Positions 1 to 18,023 are shown, counted from the first letter of the stretch. The stretch is DNA of 64,000 bases from a bacterium (GCA_035402825.1 DAONDZ010000005.1:8276-72275); one strand, 5' to 3'. Translations and numbers: made by a program. The notes: generated from the letters alone by a model not told the origin.

Positions 1-471
1 GTCTTTGGTTACTACAAAAATACTCTCGCCTTCAATATTTCCGAGATACTCTAAAATCGAAAAATAAATATAAGCGTCCTTGAAACCTTTATCAGACGTT
101 TCGTCGAATGGCGGAAGATTGCCAAGCGCAAGTTTTTTAATGTCCTCTAAAACATTTGTTGTTAAAGCAATGGTGGAATAAGGCAAGCTCTCAATTCCAG
201 CAAGTTCCAAAATCCACTTTTCTATATCAAAGTTTTTAGTTTCGTCTTCATCAATTTTTCTTAAAAAATGAAACGGATTCGATAGGAACGAATCTCTTTT
301 AGAAATAAGGTGTTTCCTTTTTTGGTTTTTTATTTCTTCGATAACAATGTCTGGAATAATAATTTCTGACACTTTCAAAAAACGCTCCAATTCAGAACGA
401 CCGCCTAAAAAATCAGCAACTGATTCGGCGTTTCTTATTGAATTTGTATCAAAAACTACTTTGTATTTCAT
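1..471 (-). CDS. PIN-like domain protein (DUF4935-like), partial; start ATG at 469-471 and the ORF runs off the window edge. It begins 4 nt downstream of the hsdS stop, consistent with co-transcription
   Basis: Manual translation of the minus strand: MKYKVVFDTNSIRNAESVADFLGG... with an N-terminal hhhFDTN motif typical of PIN-fold nucleases. No stop codon before position 1. Confidence 0.45.
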   Translation of the reverse strand, partial: MKYKVVFDTNSIRNAESVADFLGGRSELERFLKVSEIIIPDIVIEEIKNQKRKHLISKRDSFLSNPFHFLRKIDEDETKNFDIEKWILELAGIESLPYSTIALTTNVLEDIKKLALGNLPPFDETSDKGFKDAYIYFSILEYLGNIEGESIFVVTKD

Positions 472-474
472 AAT

Positions 475-1689
475 TTAATCATTAAATCCCACAACCCGAA
501 CCTCACCTTTCATCAATTTAGGCAAAAGCATACTGCGAAGAGTAGAAATAGTTTGTATTTGAGAATTGTTATTTTTTAGTTTTTTGAATGTCGGCTGAAT
601 AACTGCATTAAACTTTTTTATTATTTCATCTTCTGGCACTAATATATCAAGTGCCTTTATCATGGTTGAGTTTATAGCGGTGACAATTGATGAAGTGCTA
701 CCCAAACTATTAAAATCCAGATCTTTCAAGAATAAATAAATAAACTCAGTAGAAAAATTTGAGTTCTTTTTTATCTTTAAATGCGCAATCGCTTCATTCG
801 AAAGCATCTCCTCTGTTGTAATTGCTAATTTTCCCACTGTCATTTTAAAACTCAAAATAGCAGTGTTTTCTGGAATAACTGGAATATTAAATTTTTCAAT
901 TGCTTCGTCCGTTAAGTATTCGGAAGTGTTTGAAATATACATTTCACTATTTCCAATATCTTTTATAGAAATCCACTTTTTACCAATCGGCTTATTCGAA
1001 AACCATTCAGTTTCCAGTCTTGGCGGGGTGCGACCAATTGTAATATCAAATTCTTCTCCAATTTTCCCAGTCCTCCACCTCTCTGGGATTTTACCGAGTT
1101 CAGAATCAATTAATTTTCCATTAGCACCAGGAAAATTAAAGTTCACAAACCATTCCTTAAATATTGTCTGAGCAGTGGTCTCCAGGGTCTTATTTTGCTT
1201 CCGTAAAAACTCAATTTTATCATCTAAAGACGACAATACCGCAGCAATCGCGCGTTGTTCTGGTAAAGTGGGAGTAAGGATTAGTTTAGTTGATAACGCC
1301 CCTATTGTAATTTGAGGTTGAGCTGAACCTGTTATAACATCAGAAAAATCTCTTCCCAGCGCCCAATAATAAACAAAACCAGCGTCTAAATAGTCTTCGT
1401 TTACCTCAAAAGCAATGGAAGAATTTGTAATTGATGATTTCGCATCTGTTCTTTGAATAAAACCGCATCCAGAACCACGACAAGTAATAATTGGCTGTCT
1501 TTTTTCATATTCAAAAAAGTCTGTATACCCCCTTAATCCGCCGCCGCCGAAAACTGGGAATATTCTCTTAGTGTCTTTTGTTATAGATAAAATATCATCG
1601 GGAATGTATCTACCTTGTCGTAAAATAACAATTTCTCCTAGTGTCGTCATCTTCCATCCTTTTGGAATTGTAGAGGTTTGATCTATCAT
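475..1689 (-). CDS. hsdS: Type I restriction-modification specificity subunit HsdS (two target-recognition domains)
   Basis: 404-aa ORF with HsdS-like architecture: two variable TRDs separated by conserved coiled-coil-type repeats. Lies 2 nt downstream of hsdM. Confidence 0.8.
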   Translation of the reverse strand: MIDQTSTIPKGWKMTTLGEIVILRQGRYIPDDILSITKDTKRIFPVFGGGGLRGYTDFFEYEKRQPIITCRGSGCGFIQRTDAKSSITNSSIAFEVNEDYLDAGFVYYWALGRDFSDVITGSAQPQITIGALSTKLILTPTLPEQRAIAAVLSSLDDKIEFLRKQNKTLETTAQTIFKEWFVNFNFPGANGKLIDSELGKIPERWRTGKIGEEFDITIGRTPPRLETEWFSNKPIGKKWISIKDIGNSEMYISNTSEYLTDEAIEKFNIPVIPENTAILSFKMTVGKLAITTEEMLSNEAIAHLKIKKNSNFSTEFIYLFLKDLDFNSLGSTSSIVTAINSTMIKALDILVPEDEIIKKFNAVIQPTFKKLKNNNSQIQTISTLRSMLLPKLMKGEVRVVGFND

Positions 1690-1691
1690 AA

Positions 1692-3236
1692 TTATTCCAA
1701 GTTAAATCCAATATTTTTCAATTGTTTTTTTATTTCTTCATTTAATTTCTTTTCCTCCGCTATCTGCTCTGCAAGTTTAGCAGTTAGCCCTGTAATTTTA
1801 TCAAAAAAAGGAATGCCATCATCAATTTCATCTTGATTGCCAACATAGCGCCCCGGGGTAAGAACAAAGTTATGTTTAGTTATTTCATCTATACCAGCGG
1901 ATTTACAAAAACCTTTTATGTCTTCATATTTTCCATTTTGCTTGCGCCATTCGTGGTAGGTGCCAGCAACACGTGCCATGTCATCTTCGGAAAATTCGCG
2001 GTGCGTCTTGTCTGACATATGGCCGACTTCACTTGCGTCTATAAAAAGAATTTCACCGGTGCGTTTACGGTCACCGTTGCCTGTGCGTTTGCGAGAAATA
2101 AACCAAATACATGCTGGAATTCCAGTATTATAAAAAAGTTGTTTCGGAAGCGCGACAATACAATCCACTAAATCGTTTTCAACGAGCGACTTTCTAATAT
2201 CTCCTTCGTTGTTGGTTTGACTTGATAGTGAACCGTTGGCTAACACACACGCCATAACACCGTGTGGTGATAAATGGTAAATCATGTGCTGGAGCCACGC
2301 ATAATTGGCATTAGATGCGGGTGGTATACCATATTGCCAGCGAGGATCGTTTTGTAAAAGTTGTCCGGACCAATCACTGTCATTAAATGGTGGATTAGCA
2401 AGAACAAAATCAGCCTTAAGATCTTTGTGGGTATCATTTAAAAATGAGCCTTCGGTATTCCATTTTACCTGAGAGCCATCAATACCACGAATAGCAAGAT
2501 TCATTCGGCACAAGCGATAAGTCGTTTGGTTGCTTTCTTGACCATAAATAGAAATGTCCTCAACATTTCCGCGGTGTTCTTTGATAAATTTTTCACTCAT
2601 GATAAACATTCCGCCACTACCACACGCCGGGTCATATACTCTGCCTTTGTACGGCTCAATCATCTCTACCATGATGCGAACAATTGATTTTGGCGTGTAG
2701 AACTGGCCACCCTTCTTACCCTCTGCATTAGCAAATTCACCGAGGAAATATTCATATACCCTCCCAAGTAAATCCTTACTTTTTGCAGCCTCGGTACCAA
2801 GGGCGATATTACCCACAAGATCAATAAGTCCACCAAGTGAGGCTTTGTCCAAATTAGGACGAGCATATACTTTCGGGAGAATACCTTTAAGCGTCGGGTT
2901 TTCTTTTTCTATGGCCTCCATCGCATCATCCAAGTCCTTCCCAATGGATGGTAGTTTTGATCGAGAATGAAGATAAGACCAACGGGCAATTTGTGGCACG
3001 AAAAAAACATTTTCTGCGCGATACTCGTCGGCATCTTCAGGGTTTGCCCCTGCAAAATCATCGCCACCTACTTTTATTTTGTTATATAACTCCTCAAATG
3101 AATCTGAAATGTATTTCAGAAAGATAAGCCCAAGCACAATGTGCTTGTACTCAGCTGCATCCATATTCTTACGTAATTTATCAGCCGCCTTAAAAAGAGT
3201 CTTTTCAAATGATTCTGTTTTATTATCCTTTGCCAT
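1692..3236 (-). CDS. hsdM: Type I restriction-modification N6-adenine DNA methyltransferase subunit HsdM
   Basis: 514 aa, carrying the N6-MTase catalytic motif NPPF (LANPPFNDSDW) and the SAM-binding motif DPACGSGG. Confidence 0.9.
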   Translation of the reverse strand: MAKDNKTESFEKTLFKAADKLRKNMDAAEYKHIVLGLIFLKYISDSFEELYNKIKVGGDDFAGANPEDADEYRAENVFFVPQIARWSYLHSRSKLPSIGKDLDDAMEAIEKENPTLKGILPKVYARPNLDKASLGGLIDLVGNIALGTEAAKSKDLLGRVYEYFLGEFANAEGKKGGQFYTPKSIVRIMVEMIEPYKGRVYDPACGSGGMFIMSEKFIKEHRGNVEDISIYGQESNQTTYRLCRMNLAIRGIDGSQVKWNTEGSFLNDTHKDLKADFVLANPPFNDSDWSGQLLQNDPRWQYGIPPASNANYAWLQHMIYHLSPHGVMACVLANGSLSSQTNNEGDIRKSLVENDLVDCIVALPKQLFYNTGIPACIWFISRKRTGNGDRKRTGEILFIDASEVGHMSDKTHREFSEDDMARVAGTYHEWRKQNGKYEDIKGFCKSAGIDEITKHNFVLTPGRYVGNQDEIDDGIPFFDKITGLTAKLAEQIAEEKKLNEEIKKQLKNIGFNLE

Positions 3237-3237
3237 A

Positions 3238-3411
3238 TTATTTTTTAAGTAATTTTAATATTTCACTTTTTCTAAAACGTCGATCGCCTCGTTTACCAAA
3301 GCGAATACATTCAACCAGGCCATCCTTCTCCCATTGTCTAAGGGTGTTTGGGTGACAATTTAATAGTTCACAAGCCTGACTTAACTTTAATATTTCTTCA
3401 TTATTTTCCAT
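3238..3411 (-). CDS. Small helix-turn-helix DNA-binding protein (MerR/excisionase-family HTH), 57 aa, immediately upstream of hsdM
   Basis: Manually found ORF below the 60-aa cut-off of the track: MENNEEILKLSQACELLNCHPNTLRQWEKDGLVECIRFGKRGDRRFRKSEILKLLKK. The HTH_17-like pattern is (L..A.ELL......T...W...G.....R.G.R.RF). Confidence 0.55.
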   Translation of the reverse strand: MENNEEILKLSQACELLNCHPNTLRQWEKDGLVECIRFGKRGDRRFRKSEILKLLKK

Positions 3412-3476
3412 ATATATCTTGATTTTCTACTTAATATAACTTAACATTAGTATATATTATTACTATTGAAATTACA

Positions 3477-4244
3477 ATGATAAAAAATGACACAAAAAAT
3501 AAAGTTTCAGCAGCTCTGTTAAACGAATCATACTCTAGAATCATTGATATTTTTGAGGCAATTAAAAGTGGACTTATTTTATACACCGACGAAAACCTAA
3601 ATCAATGTTATATATCATTAGTCAAATCTATTAACAAAATTCTAGAAGAATCCTGTTATTCCGAGCTTAAAACGTTCGTGCCAGATTTTTATAAAGACAT
3701 AACAAGTAAAATAAACTTTATTGACCGAGAGTGGGATCAATATAAGGAAGAGCTTTATAATTTTTCTAGCAAAATTAATTCTTACTGTTTAACAATAGGA
3801 GCCAAAAAAGAAGTACTTAGTATTGATTTATGGAGTCCATTGTTTAATCAAATAGATGAAGCAATCACTAATCATCGCGAAACGGTAAAATATTTTTCTG
3901 AAAAACTATTAGAAAAACAAAATAACAATACCGAGAAAATAAAAATTAATATTTCCGATAATCGAGGGATATGGCGCAAAGATAATAAGACAATTCGTAT
4001 TTATGAAATAGGGATAAATACTAAAAGATTCATGATTATCAAATGTCTGAAAAACAAACAAAAAAGTGGACCTGCTTTAGCAAAATCCTACGCAAACAAT
4101 AGCCTCTCCCAGCTTAGCAAGGAGATTAAAAAAATTAACAGCCTGTTTAAAGAAAAACTTTTATTAAATGAAAATTTAATCGAAAAAGCTAACACGGGCG
4201 GATATGAATTAAATATTACTTTTTTTGATATAAATTTTGAATAA
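3477..4244 (+). CDS. Hypothetical protein (AT-rich island gene)
   Basis: 255-aa ORF followed by an intrinsic terminator; no recognisable motif. Confidence 0.45.
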   Translation: MIKNDTKNKVSAALLNESYSRIIDIFEAIKSGLILYTDENLNQCYISLVKSINKILEESCYSELKTFVPDFYKDITSKINFIDREWDQYKEELYNFSSKINSYCLTIGAKKEVLSIDLWSPLFNQIDEAITNHRETVKYFSEKLLEKQNNNTEKIKINISDNRGIWRKDNKTIRIYEIGINTKRFMIIKCLKNKQKSGPALAKSYANNSLSQLSKEIKKINSLFKEKLLLNENLIEKANTGGYELNITFFDINFE

Positions 4245-4283
4245 AAACAAAAAACCTTTAGTTGGTGTTAATAACTTTCTGGA

Positions 4284-4312
4284 AATGGCTTAATAGGCCA
4301 TTTTTTTGTTTA
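4284..4312 (+). terminator. Rho-independent terminator
   Basis: AAUGGC-UUAAUAG-GCCAUU hairpin followed by UUUUUUUGUUU. Confidence 0.6.
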
Positions 4313-4417
4313 TTAAGGTCAATAAAAAACCAATGATAAAAAATTCTAAAATACGGCAAAGTATAATTAAAGCTTTTTAATCCGGTGCACTGGTAATTTA
4401 ATAATAAAATTAAAATT

Positions 4418-4684
4418 ATGATTACCGACAAAAACAAACTGGAATACATCGACTATCGCGATGAATTTTCTACTTACGATATAGGTTTAGCTGCGGCCTT
4501 GGTTTCTTTTGGATACGAGCTTTGGGCTTTAGAAAAAGGAGAACCAAAGACAAAATTTATTTTTAAGCGTGAAACAGGTATCGAGAATACAGTTAATAGC
4601 TATTTTAACGGCAATCTGCAGGTTGATGCCCGAACAATTTTTGATAACCTAAAAATGCTCAAAAATCGCCTTTACAGTTTATGA
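4418..4684 (+). CDS. Hypothetical small protein, DUF5659-like (phage/plasmid-associated family)
   Basis: 88-aa ORF. The pattern ...ALVSFGYELWALEK...KFIFKRE...DARTIFDNLKMLKNRLY resembles DUF5659 members; the assignment is from memory, not a search. Confidence 0.4.
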   Translation: MITDKNKLEYIDYRDEFSTYDIGLAAALVSFGYELWALEKGEPKTKFIFKRETGIENTVNSYFNGNLQVDARTIFDNLKMLKNRLYSL

Positions 4685-4818
4685 AGCTTACCGGAAAAGA
4701 GATCGAGCGCTTTCAAAAAATCTATCAGGATATTTTTAACGAGAAAATAAGCTCTGATGATGCGCTTGGAAAAGGCATAGCCATAATAAACTTATTAAGA
4801 ATCGCTCTAAAAAATTAA
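4681..4818 (+). CDS. Hypothetical micro-protein (45 aa), translationally coupled to the preceding gene (ATGA overlap)
   Basis: Manually translated: MKLTGKEIERFQKIYQDIFNEKISSDDALGKGIAIINLLRIALKN. The start overlaps the stop of the 4418..4684 ORF. Confidence 0.3.
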   Translation: MKLTGKEIERFQKIYQDIFNEKISSDDALGKGIAIINLLRIALKN

Positions 4819-4824
4819 AATTAT

Positions 4825-5991
4825 ATGAACAAAGAATTCGAATATTTGGGAGCCGAGGAACTAACGGATATTCTAGGACTTACCATAAAAAAAGATAATA
4901 AAAATAAGCTTATTACTTTTCTTTGTGCCTTATCTGCTTATACAGAAGATTCCCAATTTAATTTAATCTTTAATGCTCCATCTTCAACTGGAAAAAGTTT
5001 TATTCCAACAGAAATAGCCAAACTTTTCCCAGCAGAAGATGTTATAGAAATCGCTTACTGCTCCCCAACCGCTTTTTTTCATGAGAACGGAAAATATGAC
5101 AAAGAACGAAACTCAATAATAATGGAACTATCTAATAAAATAATTATTTTTTTAGACCAGCCTCACTTGATGCTTCTTGAAAAACTTAGGCCGCTACTTT
5201 CTCATGATGCCAAAGAAATTAACCTTAAGATTACTGATAAGTCACAAAAGGGTGGTTTAAAAACCAAAAACATCATAATAAAGGGGTATCCTAGTGTTAT
5301 ATTTTGTAGCGCCAACATGAATATAGACGAACAGGAAGGCACTAGATTTATGGTGCTTTCACCAGAAGTGGATCAAGACAAGTTACGAGAATCCATAAGA
5401 GAGAAAGTACTTAAAGATACTGACATTGAAAAATATGCTACCTGGCTCGAACAAGACCCAAGAAGAATAAAATTAAGAGAACGAATACTGGCGATCAAGG
5501 CAGCAAAAATAAAAAATATTATTGTGCCCAACCCAGAAATAATATTAGAAAAATTTTTTGCAAGCAGAATTAAACTAAAACCACGTCACCAAAGAGATGT
5601 TGGGCGCATAATTTCATTAATAAAAGTTTCCGCTCTTATAAACCTGTGGCTCAGGGAAAAAGTTGGACCATCTATTATTTCTAATAATGATGATTTGGAC
5701 TTAGCCTTTTTGATCTGGAACAAAATATCAAAAAGCCAAGAATTAAATATCTCTCCTTACATTTTAGATATATACGAAAAAATAATTCTGCCCCTTTCGT
5801 CTGATAATCATGGATTAACAAAAAAAGAAATATTGGCAGAATACTACAAACGAAATGGGAGTTTTATTCCGGATTATCAATTAAGACAACAAATAATACC
5901 GACCCTAAAGGTGGCCGGATTAATTTCAGAGGACCCAGACCCTAAAGATGGTCGCTCAATTTTAATTAGACCCACAATGTATAGTGAGTGA
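4825..5991 (+). CDS. P-loop NTPase, SF3-helicase / primase C-terminal-like replication protein of a mobile element
   Basis: Walker A NAPSSTGKS, Walker B-like IIIFLDQ and a sensor-1-like VIFCSAN, spaced as in P4-type primase-helicase / D5-like ATPases. Confidence 0.5.
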   Translation: MNKEFEYLGAEELTDILGLTIKKDNKNKLITFLCALSAYTEDSQFNLIFNAPSSTGKSFIPTEIAKLFPAEDVIEIAYCSPTAFFHENGKYDKERNSIIMELSNKIIIFLDQPHLMLLEKLRPLLSHDAKEINLKITDKSQKGGLKTKNIIIKGYPSVIFCSANMNIDEQEGTRFMVLSPEVDQDKLRESIREKVLKDTDIEKYATWLEQDPRRIKLRERILAIKAAKIKNIIVPNPEIILEKFFASRIKLKPRHQRDVGRIISLIKVSALINLWLREKVGPSIISNNDDLDLAFLIWNKISKSQELNISPYILDIYEKIILPLSSDNHGLTKKEILAEYYKRNGSFIPDYQLRQQIIPTLKVAGLISEDPDPKDGRSILIRPTMYSE

Positions 5992-6027
5992 TACCGTGGG
6001 GTAAATTTATAAATTAATTTAAATTAT

Positions 6028-6270
6028 ATGAAAAACAGTGAAAAAATCATTATAACTATGTTATTTGATGAAGAAATAATTCAATGTTGTGCCGAGTCTA
6101 CAATTAAAAGAAGATTAAGTAACCTGGAATTAAACCGCCTAAGTCTTTGCTGGCCAAATTTTGATTGCACCGGTGGCGCAAGAAACGAAATCATGGAACA
6201 GTTTATTAAAGAAGTTATTGATCATGAAGACATTTGGGCGGACAAGGAATATTTTAAGTTAAAAAAATAA
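6028..6270 (+). CDS. Hypothetical small protein
   Basis: 80-aa ORF with a Cys-containing N-terminal half. Confidence 0.3.
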   Translation: MKNSEKIIITMLFDEEIIQCCAESTIKRRLSNLELNRLSLCWPNFDCTGGARNEIMEQFIKEVIDHEDIWADKEYFKLKK

Positions 6271-6600
6271 CGACAAAGGTGCGACAAATAAATTTAATAG
6301 AAGAAATCAAAACTTAAAAAATCGTGTTATCAGCGAGTAACCAATACAAAAAGAGTTAACAATATAATTTTCTTATTAAATATTAAACTAAATATAGCAA
6401 AACTTAGTACCCTTTTTTCGAGAATATAACCGGACAAAACCGGACAATAAAACGAGACAATGAGAACATTTTAAGAGTTTAGAAAATAGTAAAAAATACC
6501 CACGTTCTTTAAAAGTTTTAAAAACTACAACAATATAACGACAAAATTAAGCCTAAATCAAAGCTTTTTATTAGATCATGGGGCGGCCCTAAAATTGACA
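6241..6600. repeat. Cluster of at least 8 GACAA-core short repeats in an AT-rich, ORF-free region (iteron-like; putative origin or recombinase-binding region)
   Basis: GACAAGG, CGACAAAGG, GCGACAAATA, CCGGACAAAA/CCGGACAATA (tandem 10-mers at 6430-6449), CGAGACAATG, AACGACAAAATT and TTGACAAATT. Confidence 0.35.
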
Positions 6601-6625
6601 AATTAGCTTGATAACTAGTGCTTTC

Positions 6626-6634
6626 TGTGATAAT
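6626..6634 (+). promoter_or_regulatory. Extended -10 promoter (TGtGATAAT) driving the structured RNA element
   Basis: TG at 6626-6627 and GATAAT at 6629-6634. An upstream TTGATA/TTGACA lies at suboptimal spacing. Confidence 0.4.
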
Positions 6635-6640
6635 CTATAA

Positions 6641-6801
6641 GCGACTACCCAATTAAATGTTCACGAAACTAAGGCCCGTTTGACGGTTAGCCCGTCTTTG
6701 TCTCGCACTTGCGGATAAAGATGGGCAGTTAACCTTCCACAAGCGAGACCTTTGGGCCTTCGTGAACAGTGGGTAGTCAGGTTTGACTGCCCTTTTTTGT
6801 T
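6641..6801 (+). ncRNA. Unclassified highly structured RNA / riboswitch-like leader
   Basis: Nested long-range helices:
- GACUACCCA(6643-6651)/UGGGUAGUC(6770-6778)
- GUUCACGAA/UUCGUGAAC
- AAGGCCC/GGGCCUU
These enclose two hairpins (GACGG-UUAGC-CCGUC; GUCUCGC...GCGAGAC). An alternative terminator GGGUAGUC-AGGUUU-GACUGCCC plus U6GUU reuses the 3' strand of the outer helix. Confidence 0.5.
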
Positions 6802-6828
6802 GGGCAGATTATAATTAAAATAAAAATT

Positions 6829-7344
6829 ATGAGCAATGAAAACAAGCTCCTGGACGGAGCTAAAAAATCGTCCATCATGAATTGGGTTAAGAAACACAAG
6901 ATCTTAACCGCCATTATAATTATCTTCGTAATCGGACTGATCGGTAGTGCCATGGGGGAAGATAAAAGCACTAATAACAATATCGTCGCAAATCCTGAAG
7001 CTAATAAACCAGAAGAAAAGCAACCGGTCCAGGAGCCAGAAAAACCCAAGACTTGGACTAGCGTTTACAAAGTAACAGCAAACTCAGACAAACAAACTGA
7101 AAACTTTTCCCTTGATGGCGGACAACAGAAAATAGTATATAAGACTACCGGCAACAGCTCACTCTGCTATGTCTACGTTCTAAAGGAAGGAGCAACGCTA
7201 GACAAGAACGGCGGAATGCCAGTTGTATCAATCGACGGCGAACAAGCCGACGAAACGATGATGAGAAAATCCGATGGAAACTATTACTTGGATATCAAAA
7301 CAGTAAATGGTAGTTGCCAAATAGAAGTTCAGGAACTTAAATAA
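6829..7344 (+). CDS. Small membrane-anchored (N-terminal TM/signal-anchor) extracytoplasmic protein, hypothetical
   Basis: 171 aa with a hydrophobic segment ILTAIIIIFVIGLIGSAMG, then a low-complexity linker and a Cys-containing domain. Confidence 0.5.
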   Translation: MSNENKLLDGAKKSSIMNWVKKHKILTAIIIIFVIGLIGSAMGEDKSTNNNIVANPEANKPEEKQPVQEPEKPKTWTSVYKVTANSDKQTENFSLDGGQQKIVYKTTGNSSLCYVYVLKEGATLDKNGGMPVVSIDGEQADETMMRKSDGNYYLDIKTVNGSCQIEVQELK

Positions 7345-7360
7345 AAATGAATAACCATAA

Positions 7361-7387
7361 AAGACCGCTCCAAGGCGGTCTTTTTAA
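7361..7387 (+). terminator. Rho-independent terminator
   Basis: GACCGC-UCCAAG-GCGGUC followed by UUUUU. Confidence 0.6.
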
Positions 7388-7396
7388 AAACATAAT

Positions 7397-9040
7397 ATGA
7401 CAAATCAAAACAATAATATTAAATACTTTCTTTACGCAAGAAAGTCGTCCGAAAGTGAAGATAAGCAAGTGGCTTCTATTGATGCTCAAATTGATGAGCT
7501 CAAAAAAATATCTAAAGAAAATAATTTAGAGGTAGTTGAAATCCTATCAGAATCACAATCAGCCAAGAAGCCGGGACGCCCCGTCTTTAACTCAATGTTA
7601 GAAAGAATTTATAAAGGCGAAGCAACTGGTGTTTTATGCTGGAAAATTAATCGTTTAGCAAGAAACCCAATCGACGGCGGGAAAGTATCCTGGATGCTTC
7701 AGGAAGGCACTATTAAACACATACAAACCTTTGGTCGAAGTTATTACCCTAGTGATAATGTTTTAATGATGGCCGTTGAATTAGGAATGGCCAATCAATT
7801 TATTAAGGACCTAAGTGTCGACACAAAAAGAGGTTTAAGGGCTAAGGCTGAGCGTGGCTGGTATCCGACATTCACATCTTTAGGCTACAAACACAATCCA
7901 TTAAAGATAAAAGGAGAAAAAGAAATAGTTGATGATCCGGAAAAGTTTCATTTACTGAGAAAAATGTTTGACCTAATGCTAACTGGCCATTATCCAGTAA
8001 AAAAGATTCTTGATATTGCAACTAACGAATGGGGCTTGAGAAATAAAAAAAATAAAAAGGTTGCTATAAGCACCTTTTACAGAATTCTATCAGACCCCTT
8101 CTATTATGGTAACTTTGAATATCCTCAAGGCAGCGGAAATTGGTATAAAGGAAAACATAAACCAATGATTACTATAAATGAATTTGAGCGCATTCAAAAA
8201 CTATTAGGCAAAGAAACAAGTGCGCGTCCTCATAACAAAGAATTTGCTTTTACAGGATTAATGCGGTGTGGCGAATGCGGAGCTATTATAACTGCCGAAG
8301 CTAAAGTTAAAAGTTATAAGAATGGAAATATTCATAATTATACTTACTACCACTGCACAAAAAGAAAAAATCCGAATTGTTCTCAGAAATGCATTCGAGT
8401 AGAAACCTTAGAGAAACAAATAAGCGAAGAAATAAAACAAATATTTTTACCTAAAGAATTCTGTAGTTGGGCGCTAGAAGTTTTAAGCCGTGAAACCCGC
8501 GAAAACGGTCAAGATCGAGCCCAGCTCATATCTAAGCATAAAAAGGAATACGACGCTGTAGTGACCAAAATAAACGGTATAATAGACATGAGATCAGCTG
8601 GAGAGCTAACTGCCGAAGAATTTAATGAGCGTAAAATAGAGCTGAGCCGAGAAAAAGAGAAATTACAAGAACTTTTAAAGGATGTAGAAGAAAATGAAAA
8701 CAACTACACCGAAAAGGCGAACAGCCTTTTCCTTTTCGCAGAAAAGATTTGTGAAAAATTTATAAATGGAGATTTAAAGGACAAAGGAATAATACTTTCC
8801 TGCTTAGGTTCGAACCTCACATTAATCAACGGAAAATTGGAGATTTCATTGCAAAAACCACTAATACACATCAAAAATTTATCGCAAAATTTACACGCGA
8901 AAAATGAAGCGTTAGAACCAATGAAAAATGGCGAATATAAAAGAAAAACAGGCTCTTTCGAGTCTGCTTTTCCGATGTTGCTCCCGGGGTGGGATTCGAA
9001 CCCACGACCAATTGATTACACTTATCCACTAGTTTCCTAA
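7397..9040 (+). CDS. Large serine recombinase (integrase/transposase-type); C-terminal about 20 codons overlap tRNA exon 2 and the intron
   Basis: Resolvase-domain catalytic motif YARKSS near the N-terminus, a recombinase domain, a Cys-rich zinc ribbon (CGECG...C..C) and a coiled-coil C-terminus. The ORF reads through 8981-9040. Confidence 0.85.
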   Translation: MTNQNNNIKYFLYARKSSESEDKQVASIDAQIDELKKISKENNLEVVEILSESQSAKKPGRPVFNSMLERIYKGEATGVLCWKINRLARNPIDGGKVSWMLQEGTIKHIQTFGRSYYPSDNVLMMAVELGMANQFIKDLSVDTKRGLRAKAERGWYPTFTSLGYKHNPLKIKGEKEIVDDPEKFHLLRKMFDLMLTGHYPVKKILDIATNEWGLRNKKNKKVAISTFYRILSDPFYYGNFEYPQGSGNWYKGKHKPMITINEFERIQKLLGKETSARPHNKEFAFTGLMRCGECGAIITAEAKVKSYKNGNIHNYTYYHCTKRKNPNCSQKCIRVETLEKQISEEIKQIFLPKEFCSWALEVLSRETRENGQDRAQLISKHKKEYDAVVTKINGIIDMRSAGELTAEEFNERKIELSREKEKLQELLKDVEENENNYTEKANSLFLFAEKICEKFINGDLKDKGIILSCLGSNLTLINGKLEISLQKPLIHIKNLSQNLHAKNEALEPMKNGEYKRKTGSFESAFPMLLPGWDSNPRPIDYTYPLVS

Positions 9041-9575
9041 TGGGGTGGACTATATCATCGCCCATACAACATGGGCGCGAGGCGCTTCGAGCTATAACTT
9101 ATAGCCCTACTCCCTTTCGGGATAGTCTCTGAACCTTCCACACATAATCCTATGCGGGCTTGGCTGCTGATTACCATAATCTTTCGATCTTAGGCTTCCA
9201 GCAATTCACCTCGTTCTTCGATCTCAATTACTTGAGAAAGCTGCGTAATGCCTTCATGTACTTCGCGATGACAATTGGCACATAGGAGAACACATTTCTT
9301 TAGTTCTTCTGCTACGGACTTCCAGCTTCTGGTGTATCCTTTAGCAGAAATACCGAAATCTTTCTCCCCCGATTCAAGATGGTGAAACTCTAAAGCTTTT
9401 AGGCATCTATTGTAACCACAAATGATGCACTTTCCGCCTTTGTGTTCAACCGCCATCTGACGAATCTTTTTGCGTCTTTTGTCAACGGCCGCCTTCATAT
9501 ATTCGGCTCTATCGGCATATTTTCTCTTTTCTTTTCGCATATAAAATAGTTATAGCAAAATAAGAGAGTGCGTTC
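9019..9575 (-). mobile_element. Group I self-splicing intron (about 557 nt) with an embedded HNH homing-endonuclease ORF
   Basis: On the minus-strand RNA:
- Q-like AAUCAGCAGCC (about 9156-9166)
- R-like UUCAGAGACUAUC (9121-9133)
- S-like GAUAUAGUCC (about 9046-9056)
- P7 pairing GACUAU/AUAGUC
- terminal G before exon 2, and U before the 5' splice site. Confidence 0.8.
9190..9540 (-). CDS. HNH-family homing endonuclease encoded inside the group I intron
   Basis: 116 aa with a zinc-finger-like CIICGYNRC...HH and a HNH-like CANCHREVH motif. Confidence 0.65.
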   Translation of the reverse strand: MRKEKRKYADRAEYMKAAVDKRRKKIRQMAVEHKGGKCIICGYNRCLKALEFHHLESGEKDFGISAKGYTRSWKSVAEELKKCVLLCANCHREVHEGITQLSQVIEIEERGELLEA

Positions 9576-9636
9576 ACAGTCAACTGCGCTACCGCTGCGC
9601 TACCCGGGAATATATTAAATTTTCAAAACATAAGCT

Positions 9637-10942: not shown

Positions 10943-12736
10943 TTAGAGATTTAATTCTTTCATTTTAGCGGACAGCTCCTTCATCTCCTCCATCAACTTG
11001 ACGGTATCCAGATCATCCTGGGCTTCCTCCGAACGGCTCAAAAGAGCCTCTATTTGCCCCATCCTTTTCTTATAGCAATCATGCTTTAGTCCGACCACTA
11101 GTTTAATGATTTCTGACTTAATAGTCAAGGCATCGGATTCGGCAAAATCTTTGTCGGACAACAGGGACAAAGTGTCTAATAATGCTAACTGTTCTTCGCC
11201 TTGAGAGGCTAAAGCCTCTTTTAGGCCGGGATAGTCTAATCCCTGCTTAGTATTATAATAGATTATTAAAGCATTGTAAAACGCGCGTAAGGAGTCATTG
11301 GGTAAATGTTCCGGCAAAAGATTATTCACCGCGTAATCTAAAAATTGCGGCTCTTTAAGAATCAAAGATAAAAGTAGTTCCGCCATTTTTTCATCGCGGT
11401 TTTTTTCCAAAACCACTTCATATTCCGCGCTCACCACCGGCTTGTCCTCCTTAATATTTTTCCTTATATTAGCCAATTCTTCCCGAATCATTGTCTCTTC
11501 AGAATTAGTCTTGGCCGCCAATCTCTTCAACCAATGATCGGCTTCAATATTATTTTTCACCTTAGAAATCATGGTGAGCATCTTGGGAATGATTAATCGC
11601 TTCTGACTGACATCGCTCAAATCCACCCCGGCGGTAATCTTGTCAAAATAATATTCCAAAACCGGCTTAGCGGCTTCCACCGCTTGGCGCCACTCTTCCG
11701 GATTATGCCGCAGACATTCATCCGGGTCTTTGCCTTGAGGAATGATGATAATCTTCACATTCATTTCTTGAGCTAGAGCCTCCACAATTCCCCTGTCAGC
11801 AGCAATTTGCCCGGCGGCATCGGCATCAAAGGCTAGGGCTAGGTTGTTGGTATAGCGCTTCAAAAGCTTCACCTGCCCAAAGGTCAAAGCGGTGCCCGAT
11901 GAGGCCACGGTATTCTTGAAACCGCGGGATTGCGAAGTGATAGCATCCATTTGCCCTTCCACCACTATGGCTAAGTCCTGATCTTTGATTTCCCGTCGCG
12001 CTTTGTCCAGCCCGAAAAGCACCCGACTTTTGTCATAGACAGCGGTTTGCGGAGTGTTAATATATTTGCCCATCTTTTCCATTTCCGGATTGACAGTTTG
12101 CGGATTAACGCGCGCGGTGAAACCTACGGTCAAACCGGCAGCGTCATTAATCGGGAACATGATTCTATCCCGAAAACGGTTAAAGTATCTTCCCGCCCCT
12201 TCTTTCTTCTGAGACAAGCCGGAAAGAAAGATGTCTTCATCGCTATACCCTTTTTTCTTGAGATGATTAATTAAATCGTCAAAACTATTAGGACTATACC
12301 CCACCTGCCATTCCTTAACCGATTTCTCATCCAATCCCCTTCCCTTGAGATAGTTTTTGATATTGTTGTTGCCTAACATCTGGCGTTGATAGAACTCCTT
12401 GGCGGCGGATAAAACATCAATTAGCTTGTTGCGCTTAGAGCTGTCTTCCCAATCATTTTTTTGTAGTGTCACCCCGGCCTTGTGAGCTAATTGTTTGAGC
12501 GCCTCCACAAAATTCAGCCCCTCCATTTCCATGACAAAGCCGAAGATGTCGCCGCCTTTTTGGCAACCGAAACAATGCCAAATTTGTTTCTCCGGCGAAA
12601 CCATGAAAGACGGCGTCTTCTCATGATGGAACGGACACAAAGCCCGCAAGTTAGAACCAGCGGGCCGGAGGTTGATATATTCTCCCAGGACTTCGGTAAT
12701 ATCCAATTTTGATTTTATCTCTTCTAAGGGGTTCAT
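10943..12736 (-). CDS. dnaG: DNA primase DnaG
   Basis: N-terminal zinc-binding [11 protein letters not shown]...CFGC, a TOPRIM region (EG..D) and the dnaG-rpoD arrangement. Confidence 0.85.
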
Positions 12737-13041
12737 AGGGTGAATAATAATAAAGACTTGAGGCGCTCCACCTCTTGCGACACTACTTCACTGTCATATT
12801 CCGCATTGTGCATATGAGAGCCTTCATAGCTAGCCTGTTTCTGATCCAGGTGAAGACTAAAGACCCAATTGTCGCCGCCCTCTTCCACGTATAAATGGAT
12901 TCGGGGATAGAAATTCTGTCCCAGACGGCGGACAAAACTTTGCACGCCGCGACGGCGGTCAAAAATCAAACCATAGCCGGCATGGCGCAACCAAGATTCC
13001 GGGTTTTCGCTTAATGAATTTTTCGGGATGGTAATTTTCAT
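12733..13041 (-). CDS. Hypothetical protein (translationally coupled between the GtrA-like gene and dnaG)
   Basis: 102-aa ORF with 4-nt overlaps on both sides. Confidence 0.4.
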   Translation of the reverse strand: MKITIPKNSLSENPESWLRHAGYGLIFDRRRGVQSFVRRLGQNFYPRIHLYVEEGGDNWVFSLHLDQKQASYEGSHMHNAEYDSEVVSQEVERLKSLLLFTL

Positions 13042-13526
13042 AAACCAGGATTAACTTCCGCCTTATCTTTTTTTCTAAAAACGATAAATTTGTAAGCCAC
13101 AAAGCTTTCCAAGCCAATCAAGATACTCACTATTAACTGGGACCAAAGATAATGGACTTGCCAGCGATTAACAAAGATATGCATTAAGTAGCCGTTTAGG
13201 TTCAAGTTGATAAAAGCAATCACTATATAAATACAAATTTGACTCCAAACCCGATGCTGGTCTTGGTTATTAAAAGTCCAGAACTTCTGTAAATAAAAGC
13301 TGACCCAGAAAGACAGGATATAGGCAATGGAGGTGGAAACGATGACATTGATGTTAAGCAAGCCATGGCAGATGTACAGGACACCCAAATCTACTCCGCC
13401 AGCGATACCGCCGCTCATCACGAATTTCACTAAAGATTTATGCCGGTGCAGAATACTATAAATCCGAGGATAACGATGATACCCCCAAGCCTTAATCCGG
13501 CAGAAAAAGTGTAAAAATATCTTCAT
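13038..13526 (-). CDS. GtrA-family membrane protein (the true start is possibly the internal Met at about 13421)
   Basis: MSGGIAGGVDLGVLY... is a GtrA-like N-terminal motif with 3-4 TM helices; the N-terminal 35 aa are probably over-extension. Confidence 0.5.
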   Translation of the reverse strand: MKIFLHFFCRIKAWGYHRYPRIYSILHRHKSLVKFVMSGGIAGGVDLGVLYICHGLLNINVIVSTSIAYILSFWVSFYLQKFWTFNNQDQHRVWSQICIYIVIAFINLNLNGYLMHIFVNRWQVHYLWSQLIVSILIGLESFVAYKFIVFRKKDKAEVNPGL

Positions 13527-13535
13527 AATAATAAA

Positions 13536-14414
13536 TTACCATTTAAAATAGCGATAGGCAAATCGGGCCAACTTGGCCGTCTCGCTGAACCTATCCGCTT
13601 CGCTTTCCGCCCCTAAAACCACAGAAATAGTGGTATGCCCTGCACTATCGCTGAACTTAGCGGCCAGGCAATAGCCAGCGACATCGGTATGGCCGGTCTT
13701 GCCGCCGATAATCTGCATGCCGGTTTCCGAAAAGCTGTTTAACAAATAATTAGTGGAAGAAAACTTCTTTTTCTCGCCGCTGACGGTACTGAACTCTATC
13801 TCCGGACTAGCTACCGCTCGGGCGATTTCTAAATTATCTAAAGCCGCCTTAGTCAATTTGGCTACCTCCAAGGCATTGGACATATTCTTTTCTAAACCAA
13901 TAGGGTCAATGAAATTGGTTTGGCTTAATCCCAAATCCAAAGCTTTGCGGTTCATGGCTTTAACAAAATCCGCTCGGCTCAATCCGGTAGCTGAAGTTAA
14001 AGCCGCCGCGGCGGTATTGTCCGAGCCCACCAGCATCGCCGAGAATAAATCCCTGACTTTCACCTTTTCTCCTAAATACAATTTGCCGCCAGTCTCCAAA
14101 TCGGTGCTTTTGATTTCATAGACACTGTCCCAACCCGGATTATGTTCCAAAAATACTAAAGCCGTCATCAGCTTAGTGATGCTGGCGATGGCGTGCTGTT
14201 CATTAGCTCTTTGAGAAAAGATAGCGCTCTGACTTCTGATATCCCACACCACGGCCGCATCAGCATTGATAATCATCAGCGGCGCCTCAGCCGATAATTG
14301 CGGTTTCTGGTTATTAGCCTCTTTCTCAACAATTGCTTCTAAAGACGGCGGCGTGGAGGCAAAATTAATCCCAGATAAAAAGAGCATGACAATTTTCACG
14401 ATATATATGAACAT
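13536..14414 (-). CDS. D-alanyl-D-alanine carboxypeptidase (PBP5/6-like, S11 peptidase)
   Basis: Signal peptide, then SxxK (ASITKLM), SGN-like (VGSDN) and KTG (GGKTGHT) motifs. Confidence 0.75.
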   Translation of the reverse strand: MFIYIVKIVMLFLSGINFASTPPSLEAIVEKEANNQKPQLSAEAPLMIINADAAVVWDIRSQSAIFSQRANEQHAIASITKLMTALVFLEHNPGWDSVYEIKSTDLETGGKLYLGEKVKVRDLFSAMLVGSDNTAAAALTSATGLSRADFVKAMNRKALDLGLSQTNFIDPIGLEKNMSNALEVAKLTKAALDNLEIARAVASPEIEFSTVSGEKKKFSSTNYLLNSFSETGMQIIGGKTGHTDVAGYCLAAKFSDSAGHTTISVVLGAESEADRFSETAKLARFAYRYFKW

Positions 14415-14417
14415 AGG

Positions 14418-15020
14418 TTAGATAGTTTCGGCAGCCGCCCTTTCAATTAATTGATCAATACTCTCATCTTGATGCAGTTTTTCGTAGTCCGGCAATTCTT
14501 CTACTCGATTAACCCCTAAATGGCGAATGAAGTCCAAGGAAACCTGATAATAGTTCTCCCCTTTCTCCTTGTCGGCTTCTTCCTCAATTAAGCCACGCAA
14601 TAATAGATTGCGTAAAATCAAAGCGCAATTGACGCCTCTAATCCGATCCAAGTCTATCTTGGCAATCGGACCGCGATAAGCAATGATAGTCAGAGTCTCC
14701 AAGCTAGGGCGAGACAATTCCCCGCTCATTTCAGCCTGTAAAAACTCGCGCACTACGCCAGCTGTTTCCGCCGAGGTCACCAATTGATATTTGTGGCCGC
14801 TTTTGATTAATTGCAAACCGCCAGATCGAGATTGATAATCTAAAATCATCTGTTCTAAAACAGTTTCAATTTCAGCCTCTTTAGCTTTTAATAAGTCGGC
14901 CAATTCTTTGACGGCCAAAGGTTTGTTAGCCACGAACAGGACGGCTTCCAGGGCGGCTGGGTAGTTTTTCATATTATAATTTATTAATAATAATCTCGCG
15001 GAATAAATCTTCTTGCTCAA
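14418..15020 (-). CDS. scpB: Segregation and condensation protein B (ScpB)
   Basis: ScpB-like winged-helix repeats (LEAVLFVANKPLAVKELADLL); overlaps the scpA end. Confidence 0.7.
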   Translation of the reverse strand: MSKKIYSARLLLINYNMKNYPAALEAVLFVANKPLAVKELADLLKAKEAEIETVLEQMILDYQSRSGGLQLIKSGHKYQLVTSAETAGVVREFLQAEMSGELSRPSLETLTIIAYRGPIAKIDLDRIRGVNCALILRNLLLRGLIEEEADKEKGENYYQVSLDFIRHLGVNRVEELPDYEKLHQDESIDQLIERAAAETI

Positions 15021-15693: not shown

Positions 15694-15695
15694 AA

Positions 15696-16613: not shown

Positions 16614-16628
16614 ATTTTTAAATATTAA

Positions 16629-18014: not shown

Positions 18015-18023
18015 ATAATTGAA

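Follow-up and report, generated by a model that had tools for sequence, protein, structure and literature searches.

A probable large serine recombinase-inserted element at the 3' end of an intron-containing tRNA-Asn(GUU) gene

Insertion at the 3' ends of tRNA genes is characteristic of the genomic islands of tyrosine integrases (P4-like elements and the Islander/TIGER class), in which a functional tRNA is kept, the integrase adjoins the tRNA gene, the DNA is AT-rich, defence genes form the cargo, and the sites act as hotspots with tandem arrays. In the myxophage Mx8 (intP/intX), attP lies in the 3' end of the integrase gene, and integration into a tRNA gene alters the C-terminus of Int, a tyrosine recombinase. 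Phage-type large serine integrases (Listeria A118/LI, Bxb1, phiC31, TP901-1 and SPbeta) have a Resolvase, Recombinase and zinc-ribbon architecture, and their short att sites share a small core; relative to attP, the distal motif of the zinc-ribbon domain in attB is displaced by 5 bp towards the centre, a shift reported for the LI integrase (PMC3783163). According to a review, tRNA 3' ends are the usual targets of tyrosine recombinases, and serine recombinases mostly insert into the interior of genes (PMC5704250). A serine recombinase with a predicted tRNA-Met site is given for the Paracoccus phage vB_PamS_Pami6 (PMC6536676), a single alphaproteobacterial tailed phage; the portion of that source considered here describes no att architecture or family-wide pattern.

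The locus described below combines a recombinase of the phage-type architecture and att layout with a tRNA target. Its large serine recombinase (LSR) is remotely similar to the phage-type enzymes; only its catalytic domain matches solved structures. The differences concern the target (a tRNA 3' end with the T-loop as distal motif, not the interior of a protein-coding gene), the overlap between attP and the recombinase gene's own 3' end, the host (Patescibacteria) and the lack of a known directionality factor. The site, the intact tRNA and the surroundings are those of tyrosine-integrase islands, whereas the enzyme family and, presumably, the chemistry differ, and the shared core spans 4-5 bp, where those islands duplicate tens of bases of the tRNA 3' segment. 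Mx8 shares the arrangement of attP within the integrase gene, although its enzyme class is different; vB_PamS_Pami6 shares the assignment of a serine-recombinase element to a tRNA gene, as far as the cited source goes (PMC6536676). The element is ordinary in kind; its enzyme family is one that normally avoids tRNA genes as targets.

The window, i.e., the whole stretch of DNA that was analysed, comprises 64,000 nucleotides of a bacterial contig (source contig L001). GC content calculated per 1 kb was 0.30-0.43 (mean 0.35, n = 9) for positions 1-9000 and 0.39-0.46 for positions 9001-64000 (55 intervals of 1 kb). Eight of the nine left-hand kilobases fall below 0.39, the minimum of the right-hand 55, and the sole GC-normal kilobase (2001-3000, GC 0.43) lies within hsdM. 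The step at ~ 9.0 kb, which continues on the source contig and recurs at the tRNA end in L010 and L108, coincides with the end of the tRNA gene (~ 8.98 kb). An earlier interpretation made from the DNA sequence alone (hereafter, the sequence-only reading) had proposed an AT-rich mobile element abutting the tRNA, which both the computed discontinuity and the comparison with relatives confirm, and had placed the change in composition at about 6.6 kb, which the calculation does not. On the source contig, the AT-rich tract runs on past the attL of the element into older remnants and an IS. Therefore, the "island" is a tandem array in which the recombinase element is the member adjoining the tRNA.

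We consider it highly probable that positions 1-8984 represent the 9 kb next to the tRNA in a 14.6-kb integrative element, which the LSR inserted at the 3' end of tRNA-Asn(GUU). The element is non-conjugative, with no family match for relaxase, coupling protein or type IV secretion genes, and is probably self-replicating. It consists of a rightward backbone (DUF5659 protein, 45-aa ORF, AAA+ helicase, candidate iteron-like origin, structured RNA, membrane protein, LSR) and a divergent leftward cargo operon (HTH protein, HsdM, HsdS, PIN_12 protein, HsdR and two further genes). The features are as follows.

1..474, minus strand: 5' part of a PIN_12-domain gene between hsdS and hsdR (Pfam PIN_12, E = 4e-14)
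475..1689, minus strand: hsdS, 404 aa, two target-recognition domains (Pfam Methylase_S, E = 3e-24, two matched stretches)
1692..3236, minus strand: hsdM, N6-adenine methyltransferase, 514 aa (Pfam N6_Mtase, E = 1e-114; HsdM_N, E = 1e-24)
3238..3411, minus strand: 57-aa DNA-binding protein of the HTH_17/MerR type, at the head of the leftward operon (Pfam HTH_17, MerR_1)
3477..4244, plus strand: unassigned 255-aa protein, first gene of the rightward module
4418..4684, plus strand: DUF5659 protein of the backbone, 88 aa (Pfam DUF5659, E = 1.5e-8)
4681..4818, plus strand: 45-aa ORF of the backbone, conserved with the DUF5659 and helicase genes
4825..5991, plus strand: AAA+ P-loop ATPase, 388 aa (homologues, AlphaFold2, Foldseek)
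6028..6270, plus strand: 80-aa ORF, a called gene in several assemblies, no family match
6240..6560, plus strand: iteron-like direct repeats (S)GACAA, pairs 10-11 nt apart
6643..6798, plus strand: strongly structured element (MFE -80.7 kcal/mol, z = -7.4)
6829..7344, plus strand: 171-aa protein with one membrane helix predicted from the sequence
7397..9040, plus strand: LSR, 547 aa in the integrated state (Pfam Resolvase, Recombinase, Zn_ribbon_recom)
8950..9005, plus strand: attR (junction alignment across loci)
8950-8979: P arm of attR, inside the LSR gene
8980-8984: core of attR, GCTCC, antisense to tRNA G70-G73 plus one trailer nucleotide
8995-9001: TTCGAAC of the B' arm of attR, which is the acceptor/T arm of the tRNA
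8981..9609, minus strand: tRNA-Asn(GUU), the host target gene (spliced sequence called tRNA-Asn by ARAGORN)
9609-9576, 9575-9019 and 9018-8981, minus strand: exon 1, group I intron and exon 2 of the tRNA gene
9190-9540: HNH ORF in the intron (PHROG HNH, E = 3e-29)
L001 17303-17329, outside the window: cognate attL (P'-type pattern match, core GCTCC)

The target gene is interrupted, and ARAGORN reported no tRNA on the unspliced window. Joining 9609-9576 to 9018-8981 yields a canonical tRNA-Asn(GUU) cloverleaf with the intron between U35 and U36, and Rfam RF00028 (group I intron) matches 9026-9311 on the minus strand with a score of 84 bits, where the gathering score is 50. The Asn assignment was favoured over an alternative Thr(UGU) join because of U1-A72, G73 and synteny with intronless tRNA-Asn genes, which follow rpoD in six relatives. 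Exon 2 had been recognised earlier at the right end of the element; more precisely, the element ends exactly at the tRNA 3' end.

The recombinase reported at 7397..9040 is supported by its domains (Resolvase, E = 2.4e-18; Recombinase, E = 5e-9; Zn_ribbon_recom, E = 4e-11) and a profile match to the TP901-1 integrase catalytic domain (E = 9e-9). In an alignment of 40 family sequences, the Y13-x-R15-K-S17 motif, R61, R86 and R89, and the four cysteines C291, C294, C320 and C328 are invariant, and the intact ORF retains every family-invariant catalytic residue. As also stated previously, its 3' end overlaps exon 2 (8981-9018). The overlap is with the opposite strand and extends over 22 nt of the intron, so that the last 18-20 codons (530-547) are antisense to exon 2 and the 3' end of the intron. 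This adjacency reflects an attP that coincides in part with the 3'-terminal codons of the LSR. The sequence-only reading had called the geometry classic; it is indeed present, but it is classic for tyrosine integrases and unusual for a serine recombinase.

The same geometry is common in the family, which belongs to Patescibacteria and is very large (6087 matches at E < 1e-30): its genes often terminate within the 3' half of a tRNA gene. The C-terminal tail is an antisense translation of a tRNA T-arm (e.g., '..G.DSN.RP..') in 57 of the best 120 homologues, and at 23 of the 41 GTDB loci examined, the stop codon lies within or adjoins an antisense tRNA gene; the tRNAs concerned are Asn, His, Glu, Arg, Gly, Tyr, Val, Leu and Gln. 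Two types of junction could be distinguished across at least eight independent loci: in the tRNA type, a GCTC(C/G) core is followed after 10 nt by the T-loop motif TTCGAAC, and in the P' type, it is followed after 15 nt by TT(A/C)GAAC. The P'-type arm was found in a phage-like contig (L149) and in L147, L150, L127, L108 and L090. The difference between the two spacings equals the 5-bp shift described for the LI integrase (PMC3783163).

An important question is whether the other end of the element can be located. Upstream on the source contig, as the sequence-only reading had suggested, there is a single P'-type site in the expected orientation (0.01 expected by chance), 5.6 kb past the window start; the left boundary does lie beyond the window. 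This attL call, on the contig beyond the window, combines one pattern match with arguments of consensus, frame and context: the site matches the extended P' consensus GACGA..TTAGAACC; joining its P' arm to the P arm of the LSR gives an open 560-aa ORF with the tail 'LLHELDEIRT..', which resembles attP-state homologues (e.g., '..LYDEIRT..'); and a terminator hairpin precedes it, as at attL/attB of L108 and L147. The corresponding predicted junction sequences are TTCCGATGTTGCTCCACGAACTAGACG for attP and AATAAAGCTCCCGGGGTGGG for attB. Symmetry between the P and P' arms is weak (13 of 32 positions).

From these junctions, a route of integration can be proposed. LSR dimers would bind attP of the circular element, which would overlap the last LSR codons and carry TT(A/C)GAAC in its arms, 15 nt from the core. 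They would also bind attB, in which the GCTC(C) core would correspond to positions 70-73 of the tRNA and the initial base of the trailer; the T-loop TTCGAAC, 10 nt from the core and 5 bp closer to the centre, would be the distal motif. Cleavage at a central dinucleotide presumed to lie within GCTC, rotation of the subunits and religation would then insert the element, and since the exchange would be limited to the identical core and the 3' trailer, the tRNA would be left intact. Integration would also swap the C-terminus of the LSR, replacing 31 residues of the P' arm (HELDEIRT...) with 18 residues read antisense from the tRNA and intron; many integrated copies in the family end early ('..LLRG*'), and the swapped tail is therefore probably not functional. 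P-O-P' junctions also occur inside chromosomal arrays in L147, L148 and L127, which a simple attP x attB exchange accounts for only in part.

Could the AT-rich DNA instead be a native chromosomal region, with a recombinase such as a resolvase or invertase near the tRNA by coincidence? In favour of this, the search for an attB version of the tRNA locus among same-species contigs, recommended earlier, yielded none (10 of 10 contigs encoding identical RpoD carry the island). Synteny of rpoD and tRNA-Asn is conserved in the relatives, but the DNA past the tRNA differs in L010, L012, L017, L027 and L147, and it is wholly different in those at 80-81% RpoD identity. In L010 (81%), the same tRNA-Asn is followed by a tyrosine integrase and an AT-rich island; in L012, by an LSR homologue together with inovirus-like genes; and in L147 (80%), by a related LSR element whose backbone is the same. 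The locus is an integration hotspot. Moreover, neither the family-wide overlap of recombinase and tRNA nor junctions of the attP and attB types are expected by chance, and the enzyme has the integrase-type Recombinase and zinc-ribbon domains rather than the architecture of small resolvases. We therefore regard a native region as hardly credible.

Within the inserted element, the cargo proved to be as described previously, a type I restriction-modification (R-M) system and a PIN-like gene, now identified by Pfam as HsdS, HsdM and PIN_12. The system is complete, with HsdM and HsdS in the window and HsdR (1037 aa; PADLOC REase_I, 1231 bits) next on the source contig. The PIN_12 gene, cut by the window edge, encodes 338 aa in full (L001 11219-12235) and matches PADLOC PDC-S34 (E = 8e-10). 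The 57-aa HTH protein, which is a possible regulator or excisionase-like factor, matches a PHROG excisionase/regulator family (E = 3e-6) and PADLOC mad1 (E = 3e-6). With this leftward operon, the element qualifies as a defence island. Its R-M genes are GC-richer than the backbone (0.43 at 2-3 kb), tandem arrays are common at this type of locus (L147/L148, L108 and L048), and remnants exist past attL; such observations would fit a composite of two tandem insertions of different times, one bringing the backbone (~ 3.4-9 kb) and the other the R-M cargo (1-3.4 kb and further left). This is unlikely, however, since no further att-like site of either type occurs between window position 8980 and L001 17303, the related L147 element shows the same divergent two-operon layout around one intergenic region, and type I R-M genes also lie beside the recombinase at two other LSR loci (L136 and L127).

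The backbone of the LSR-inserted element is conserved in L147, where identity is 43% for the DUF5659 protein (in the same gene order), 50% for the 45-aa ORF, 60% for the AAA+ protein and 62% for the LSR. A pair of small DUF5659-like genes had been proposed; one is a DUF5659 gene, and its partner is the 45-aa ORF, which is a called gene in several assemblies and is 50% identical in L147/L148 and 40% in L091. The 388-aa ATPase carries Walker A (APSSTGKS) and Walker B-like (IIFLDQ) motifs. The P-loop protein of the sequence-only reading is confirmed and its proposed part in replication supported, but the SF3-helicase/primase-C label found no clear support: no Pfam, PHROG or NCBIfam model matches the protein, SF3/D5 models included. 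For its AlphaFold2 model (mean pLDDT 85.7), a Foldseek comparison with the PDB ranks MCM2-7 and archaeal MCM first (E = 1e-7, TM ~ 0.5), followed by BchI, RavA and ComM, and a D5-like PrimPol match is weak (E = 1e-3). The predicted fold is thus nearest to MCM-clade AAA+ ATPases, as in prophage-encoded MCM-like helicases, and none of the strong structural matches is an SF3 helicase. Many of the more than 1500 homologues have an N-terminal Toprim primase domain, as in Toprim-primase/AAA+ replication proteins of plasmids and prophages; this domain is confined to the longer homologues (600-724 aa), whereas the present protein begins at the ATPase module. The Toprim fusions support a role in replication, and the protein is probably the replicative helicase of the element.

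Downstream, the ORF-free region with GACAA repeats noted before is confirmed (6271-6828). Six same-strand SGACAA copies occur in 6240-6544 (305 nt) against ~ 0.33 expected from the window-wide density, and the repeats form a candidate replication origin. Together, the Toprim-fused homologues, the MCM-like model and these clustered repeats support a replication module. The structured element at 6643..6798, upstream of the 171-aa gene and the LSR, has promoter-like and terminator-like flanks (terminator-like site at 6771-6792) and no Rfam match; it could be an sRNA or a leader. The 171-aa protein has weak PHROG matches at best (e.g., superinfection exclusion, E = 0.007). The 255-aa protein has no Pfam, PHROG or NCBIfam match and is not conserved in related elements. 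In all, the proteins encoded by the element include ones of 255, 428, 193 and 171 aa without an assigned role.

A phage origin deserves consideration at this point. PHROG labels the LSR an integrase (E = 6e-66), some family members occur in phage-like contigs (L149, with Rad52, RuvC and a repressor) or beside inovirus-like genes (L012), and IMG/VR holds related proviruses. However, searches with Pfam, PHROG and NCBIfam over the whole 14.6 kb revealed no virion structural, packaging or lysis genes (no capsid, terminase, portal, tail, lysis or Zot-like gene), and the recognisable gene content is replication, recombination and defence. A prophage or phage satellite is accordingly very improbable.

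Another key question is whether the element may still move. In every contig of identical RpoD, from at least five samples, the island is kept with identical intergenic sequence; the predicted 560-aa excised-state protein is absent from a collection of 15 billion proteins and the attP junction from IMG/VR; the helicase lacks the Toprim domain of many homologues; and no recombination directionality factor was recognised. These observations are compatible with an LSR-inserted element that has become a fixed, domesticated defence island and no longer excises or replicates, a possibility that we take seriously but consider the less probable one. The intact recombinase, with its catalytic residues, and intact attL and attR, which both match the family consensus, argue against it, and missing excision products are weak evidence because rare circles do not get assembled. 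An integrative element that may have retained its mobility is the reading we prefer.

Viewed across the family, the LSR may represent a large undescribed radiation of serine integrases, mostly in Patescibacteria, with attB at the tRNA 3' end, attP in the last integrase codons and a C-terminus that differs between the excised and integrated states; we give this interpretation about an even chance. The universally conserved T-loop TTCGAAC would then be the motif to which the zinc-ribbon domain binds, and the acceptor end with the discriminator would serve as the crossover core. Clades would have been retargeted to at least nine tRNA isoacceptor types, and the sites would gather tandem arrays, with integrase-less mini-elements of 0.3-1.1 kb among their members.

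The first 9 kb of the window are compositionally distinct. In 1-kb windows, GC content ranged from 0.30 to 0.43 (mean 0.35) over positions 1-9000 and from 0.39 to 0.46 over positions 9001-64000 (n = 55), and eight of the nine leftmost windows fell below the minimum of the remaining 55. The shift from AT-rich to core DNA described in the sequence-only reading is a genuine discontinuity, but the step lies at ~9.0 kb and not at 6.6 kb. On the source contig (JGI Ga0116247_10000517, 77.5 kb; here L001), low GC extends 8.4 kb further to the left of window position 1. As that reading had anticipated, the left boundary of the island lies outside the window: on the contig, the remainder of the PIN_12 gene is followed by HsdR (1037 aa), two further ORFs (193 and 428 aa) and a number of small ones. 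A DUF5671 gene is also present in the neighbourhood and, with the record names of relatives given below, suggests that the host belongs to the candidate phyla radiation. All of the genes that it had named were located by ORF calling and by Pfam and PHROG searches, and their positions are listed below.

Genes of the island within the window
1-474, minus strand: PIN_12 gene, truncated by the window edge
475-1689: HsdS
1692-3236: HsdM
3238-3411, minus strand: 57-aa HTH_17/MerR protein
4418-4684: DUF5659
4825-5991: P-loop protein (388 aa)
7397-9040, plus strand: large serine recombinase (LSR) with Resolvase, Recombinase and Zn_ribbon_recom domains

Exact-protein look-ups revealed the same arrangement in at least five other assemblies. 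The proteins of 388, 255, 80, 171, 193 and 428 aa had no match in Pfam, PHROG, NCBIfam, PADLOC or PDB sequence searches.

The island adjoins a tRNA gene that ARAGORN did not report in the raw window. The gene is split by a group I intron (Rfam, positions 9026-9311, minus strand, 84 bits against a gathering score of 50), and ARAGORN therefore detects tRNA-Asn only once the intron is removed: positions 9609-9576 joined to 9018-8981 give a canonical tRNA-Asn(GUU) (8981-9609, minus strand), in which the 557-nt intron lies between U35 and U36 and contains an HNH homing-endonuclease ORF (9190-9540, PHROG E = 3e-29). An alternative join yielding Thr(UGU) is formally possible, but U1-A72, G73 and the intronless tRNA-Asn found directly 3' of rpoD in six relatives speak for Asn. 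The LSR ORF does overlap exon 2 of the tRNA, as previously noted, on the opposite strand and together with 22 nt of the intron. In intronless hosts, the LSR stop codon is a TAA antisense to U35-U36-A37 of the anticodon loop; the intron in the window splits this triplet, and the ORF is seven codons longer.

The overlap of recombinase and tRNA genes recurs throughout the family. We found 6087 LSR homologues at E < 1e-30, of which the top 120 share 54-67% identity and are about 530-570 aa long; the records of the relatives carry the names Patescibacteria, Parcubacteria and Saccharibacteria. In 57 of these 120, the protein ends in a tail '..LL(P/R)G.DSN.(R/Q)P..', which is the antisense translation of the 3' strand of the tRNA acceptor and the T-arm. 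Eight of the 57 run on into 'YTYP..', the signature of the intron of the window (in full, '..YTYP(L/I)(V/I)S'), which was also found in loci L090, L141 and L142; the intron is thus widespread in the lineage. Approximately 44 of the 120 tails end directly after '..LLRG', a class in which the stop codon fell in the T-stem of tRNA-Asn in all three GTDB loci inspected, and approximately 14 continue with '..L.D.(V/I)RT..'. Of the 41 GTDB loci that hold an LSR relative, 23 had the stop codon inside or adjoining an antisense tRNA gene; the genes concerned were those for Asn, His, Glu, Arg, Gly, Tyr, Val, Leu and Gln. Relatives with 38-48% identity were also present in Bdellovibrionales, Rickettsiales, Omnitrophota, Ferruginibacter, Lutibacter and Flavobacteriales (L092, L094, L098-L100 and L102), which extends the family beyond Patescibacteria; these mostly had no overlapping tRNA, and their targets may differ. 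In IMG/VR, the single LSR protein as query gave no match, and an alignment-based search gave six distant proviruses.

How, then, is the tRNA gene recognised? When the junctions were aligned on the conserved block T(T/G)GCTC(C/G), two kinds of right arm became apparent. At tRNA junctions, 10 nt separate GCTCC from TTCGAAC, the T-loop. The other kind, found in the phage-like contig L149 and in L150, L127, L147, L108 and L090, has TT(A/C)GAAC starting 15 nt after the core, within the wider consensus ..GACGA(T/G)(G/A)TT(A/C)GAACC. For the LI integrase, the distal motif is 5 bp nearer the centre in attB than in attP, and the same was proposed for other serine integrases (PMC3783163). Since the 5-bp shift matches this pattern, we assign the 15-nt kind to the P' arms, with the tRNA supplying the B' arm. 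The element/tRNA junction in the window (attR) is then composed as follows.

Components of attR
8950-8979: P arm, in the 3' end of the LSR gene
8980-8984: core GCTCC, antisense to G70-G73 plus one trailer base
8995-9001: TTCGAAC of the B' arm

In some attL/attR pairs (L108 and L147), the shared sequence is GCTC only, so the crossover dinucleotide should fall within these four bases. Islands of tyrosine integrases usually carry a duplicated 3' fragment of the tRNA as their signature. Apart from a 15-nt repeat in L115, no such fragment was found on the source contig, in L012 or in 20 GTDB loci, which pointed to a short-core mechanism. The symmetry between the P and P' arms is weak and is not counted in favour of this assignment. 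Inside the LSR gene, at 8808-8817 and about 8906-8915 (~172 and 65 nt upstream of the core), and in many homologues as well, there are also conserved GGTT(C/A)GAACC-like stretches similar to the distal att motif. They encode the conserved peptides 'LGSNL' and '(R/A)LEP' and could be either accessory binding sites or simply the product of coding constraint.

The far end of the element was sought on the upstream contig, as the sequence-only reading had proposed, and was found there. A single match to GCTCS-N15-TTMGAAC was obtained on the source contig (L001 17303-17329), against a chance expectation of 0.01, and it lies on the strand that attL should occupy. The site also fits the extended P' consensus, which was not included in the search pattern, and a strong terminator hairpin stands in front of it, a feature shared with the B arms in L108, L147 and L127. 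When attL is joined to the P arm of the LSR gene, the frame remains open for 31 more codons, so that the predicted excised-state protein has 560 aa against 547 aa in the integrated state, and gives the tail 'LLHELDEIRTSLNEFEGYEAIKLLFNKPEFTLR*', which reproduces the '..DEIRT..' tail of attP-state homologues. The predicted attP junction is TTCCGATGTTGCTCCACGAACTAGACGAGATTAGAACC, and the predicted attB junction is GCTTTTGTCAATAAAGCTCCCGGGGTGGGATTCGAACC. Since window coordinates equal 11690 minus L001 coordinates, the attL core falls ~5.6 kb beyond the left edge of the window, which gives the element a length of 14.6 kb. Between attR and attL, no further att-like site was found; hence, the restriction-modification (R-M) operon and the backbone appear to be one element.

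Beyond attL, a terminator hairpin (TTGACAAAAGCATAT..ATATGCTTTT) is present three times in the region L001 17334-20126, which also holds two or three P'-like repeats in degenerate form and orphan ORFs (99, 101, 239 and 121 aa). The region resembles a fossil array of small elements in tandem that lack an integrase, and we take its contents for remnants of older insertions. Similar arrays, in which some units are integrase-less and 0.3-1.1 kb long, were observed in L147/L148, L108 and L048. In L147 (11586-12765), L148 (10839-11652), L048 (15676-19460) and L108 (4274 and 6474), several P'-type sites follow one another at distances of 0.3-1.1 kb, and the same hairpin precedes each of them; in L147 and L127, an attP-like P' arm follows the LSR gene despite the setting in a chromosomal array. 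Simple attP x attB recombination does not account for these arrays. The tandem sites and attP-like arms suggest insertion of new elements between the tRNA and an older element, and mobilisation of mini-elements in trans. The source contig breaks off within the C-terminus of an rve-type DDE transposase (L001 19930-20126, minus strand, '..YNHTRIHTKLKMPP..'). The end point shared by several assemblies was considered as the end of the island and rejected, as it corresponds to this C-terminus; independent assemblies break within ~300 nt of one place because of the IS copy.

Comparison with relatives shows that the rpoD/tRNA-Asn locus is an integration hotspot: the DnaG - RpoD - tRNA-Asn synteny is kept, and the DNA 3' of the tRNA varies. 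In the closest relative found (L010, 81% RpoD identity), a tyrosine integrase immediately follows tRNA-Asn, with an AT-rich island of at least 9 kb (11876-21113) carrying other restriction and toxin genes, identified by eye only as restriction enzymes, a Dam-like methylase and a HicAB-like pair. In L147 (80% RpoD identity), a related element with identical backbone order occupies tRNA-Asn (identities: DUF5659, 43%; 45-47-aa ORF, 50%; Toprim-AAA+, 60% in the ATPase part; LSR, 62%). The same block in a non-tRNA context, which would have spoken against tRNA-directed integration, was not seen. In L012 (70% RpoD identity), an LSR homologue with 36% identity over its full length follows tRNA-Asn. 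At 2036-9232, this locus also carries genes that look inovirus-like, judged from N-terminal sequences only; their products are a Zot-like P-loop protein (232 aa), a secreted protein (592 aa) and a membrane protein (90 aa). Here, a serine recombinase may have integrated a filamentous prophage into a bacterium of the candidate phyla radiation.

Pfam, PHROG and NCBIfam searches revealed no virion, packaging, lysis, relaxase or secretion genes; the description that fits the element best is that of an integrative, plasmid-like defence island. The type I R-M system expected as cargo is complete, with the PIN_12 gene embedded in it and two downstream genes without family; type I R-M genes were also found at the LSR loci L136 and L127. 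The 57-aa HTH protein ahead of hsdM matches PADLOC 'mad1' (E = 3e-6) and the PIN_12 protein matches the candidate defence family PDC-S34 (E = 8e-10), so the operon may be a more complex defence cassette. Another question is whether the island is now fixed and no longer mobile. The exact excised-state protein is absent from a collection of 15 billion proteins, the attP junction is absent from IMG/VR, and a look-up of identical RpoD gave no empty site, as would be the case for a fixed island; however, the LSR ORF, attL and attR are all intact, and we consider fixation rather unlikely.

The element works like phage-type serine-integrase systems but occupies the usual site of tyrosine-integrase islands. 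Serine recombinases generally integrate within genes, while tyrosine recombinases use tRNA 3' ends (reviewed in PMC5704250), although a Paracoccus phage with a serine recombinase was assigned, as a prediction, to tRNA-Met (PMC6536676). As a genomic island, the element is of an ordinary type, integrated at a tRNA hotspot and carrying defence genes; what would set it apart is a serine integrase that recognises the tRNA 3' end with the T-loop as one DNA-binding motif. Our literature search, which was incomplete and may have missed an earlier description, returned no account of tRNA-targeting serine integrases in Patescibacteria, nor of a T-loop as distal motif or an attP lying within the 3' end of the integrase gene; the island databases TIGER/Islander may already contain such cases. 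The family has thousands of members in the candidate phyla radiation, a group in which gene flow and mobile elements are still poorly known. If correct, the proposed recognition would explain how small-genome bacteria acquire defence genes without gene disruption, would provide a simple rule for delimiting islands in fragmented metagenome assemblies (core GCTC plus the motif at 10 or 15 nt), and would supply serine integrases that naturally target highly conserved tRNA genes, of practical interest for genome engineering.

The P-loop protein had been taken for an SF3-helicase/primase-like protein. Profile libraries gave no match to it, but it has >1500 homologues, many with an N-terminal Toprim primase domain that is absent from this copy. 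Its confident AlphaFold2 model (34 sequences; mean pLDDT 85.7, pTM 0.87) best matched eukaryotic and archaeal MCM subunits in the PDB (E = 1e-7, TM about 0.5), followed by BchI, RavA and ComM, whereas a D5-like PrimPol matched at E = 1e-3 only. A replication role is thus well supported by the homologues and the predicted fold, and the SF3 label is not. The GACAA repeats reported in the ORF-free stretch 6271-6828 are present as six SGACAA copies on the same strand within 305 nt (~0.33 expected); helically phased and right after the P-loop gene, they are a plausible candidate origin.

One additional feature is a structured element of ~155 nt at 6643-6798 (plus strand, MFE z = -7.4), directly before the 171-aa gene and the LSR. 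A promoter-like sequence precedes it, and 6771-6792 form a terminator-like hairpin. The element matches no Rfam family and is a candidate new sRNA or leader; the sole related sequence found was a 77% partial match in the IMG/VR locus L146 (15185-15298). In the related element of L147, the intergenic region between the divergent genes contains a LOOT RNA (Rfam RF03000, 53 bits; 5570-5693, minus strand), for which the element of the window gave no match.
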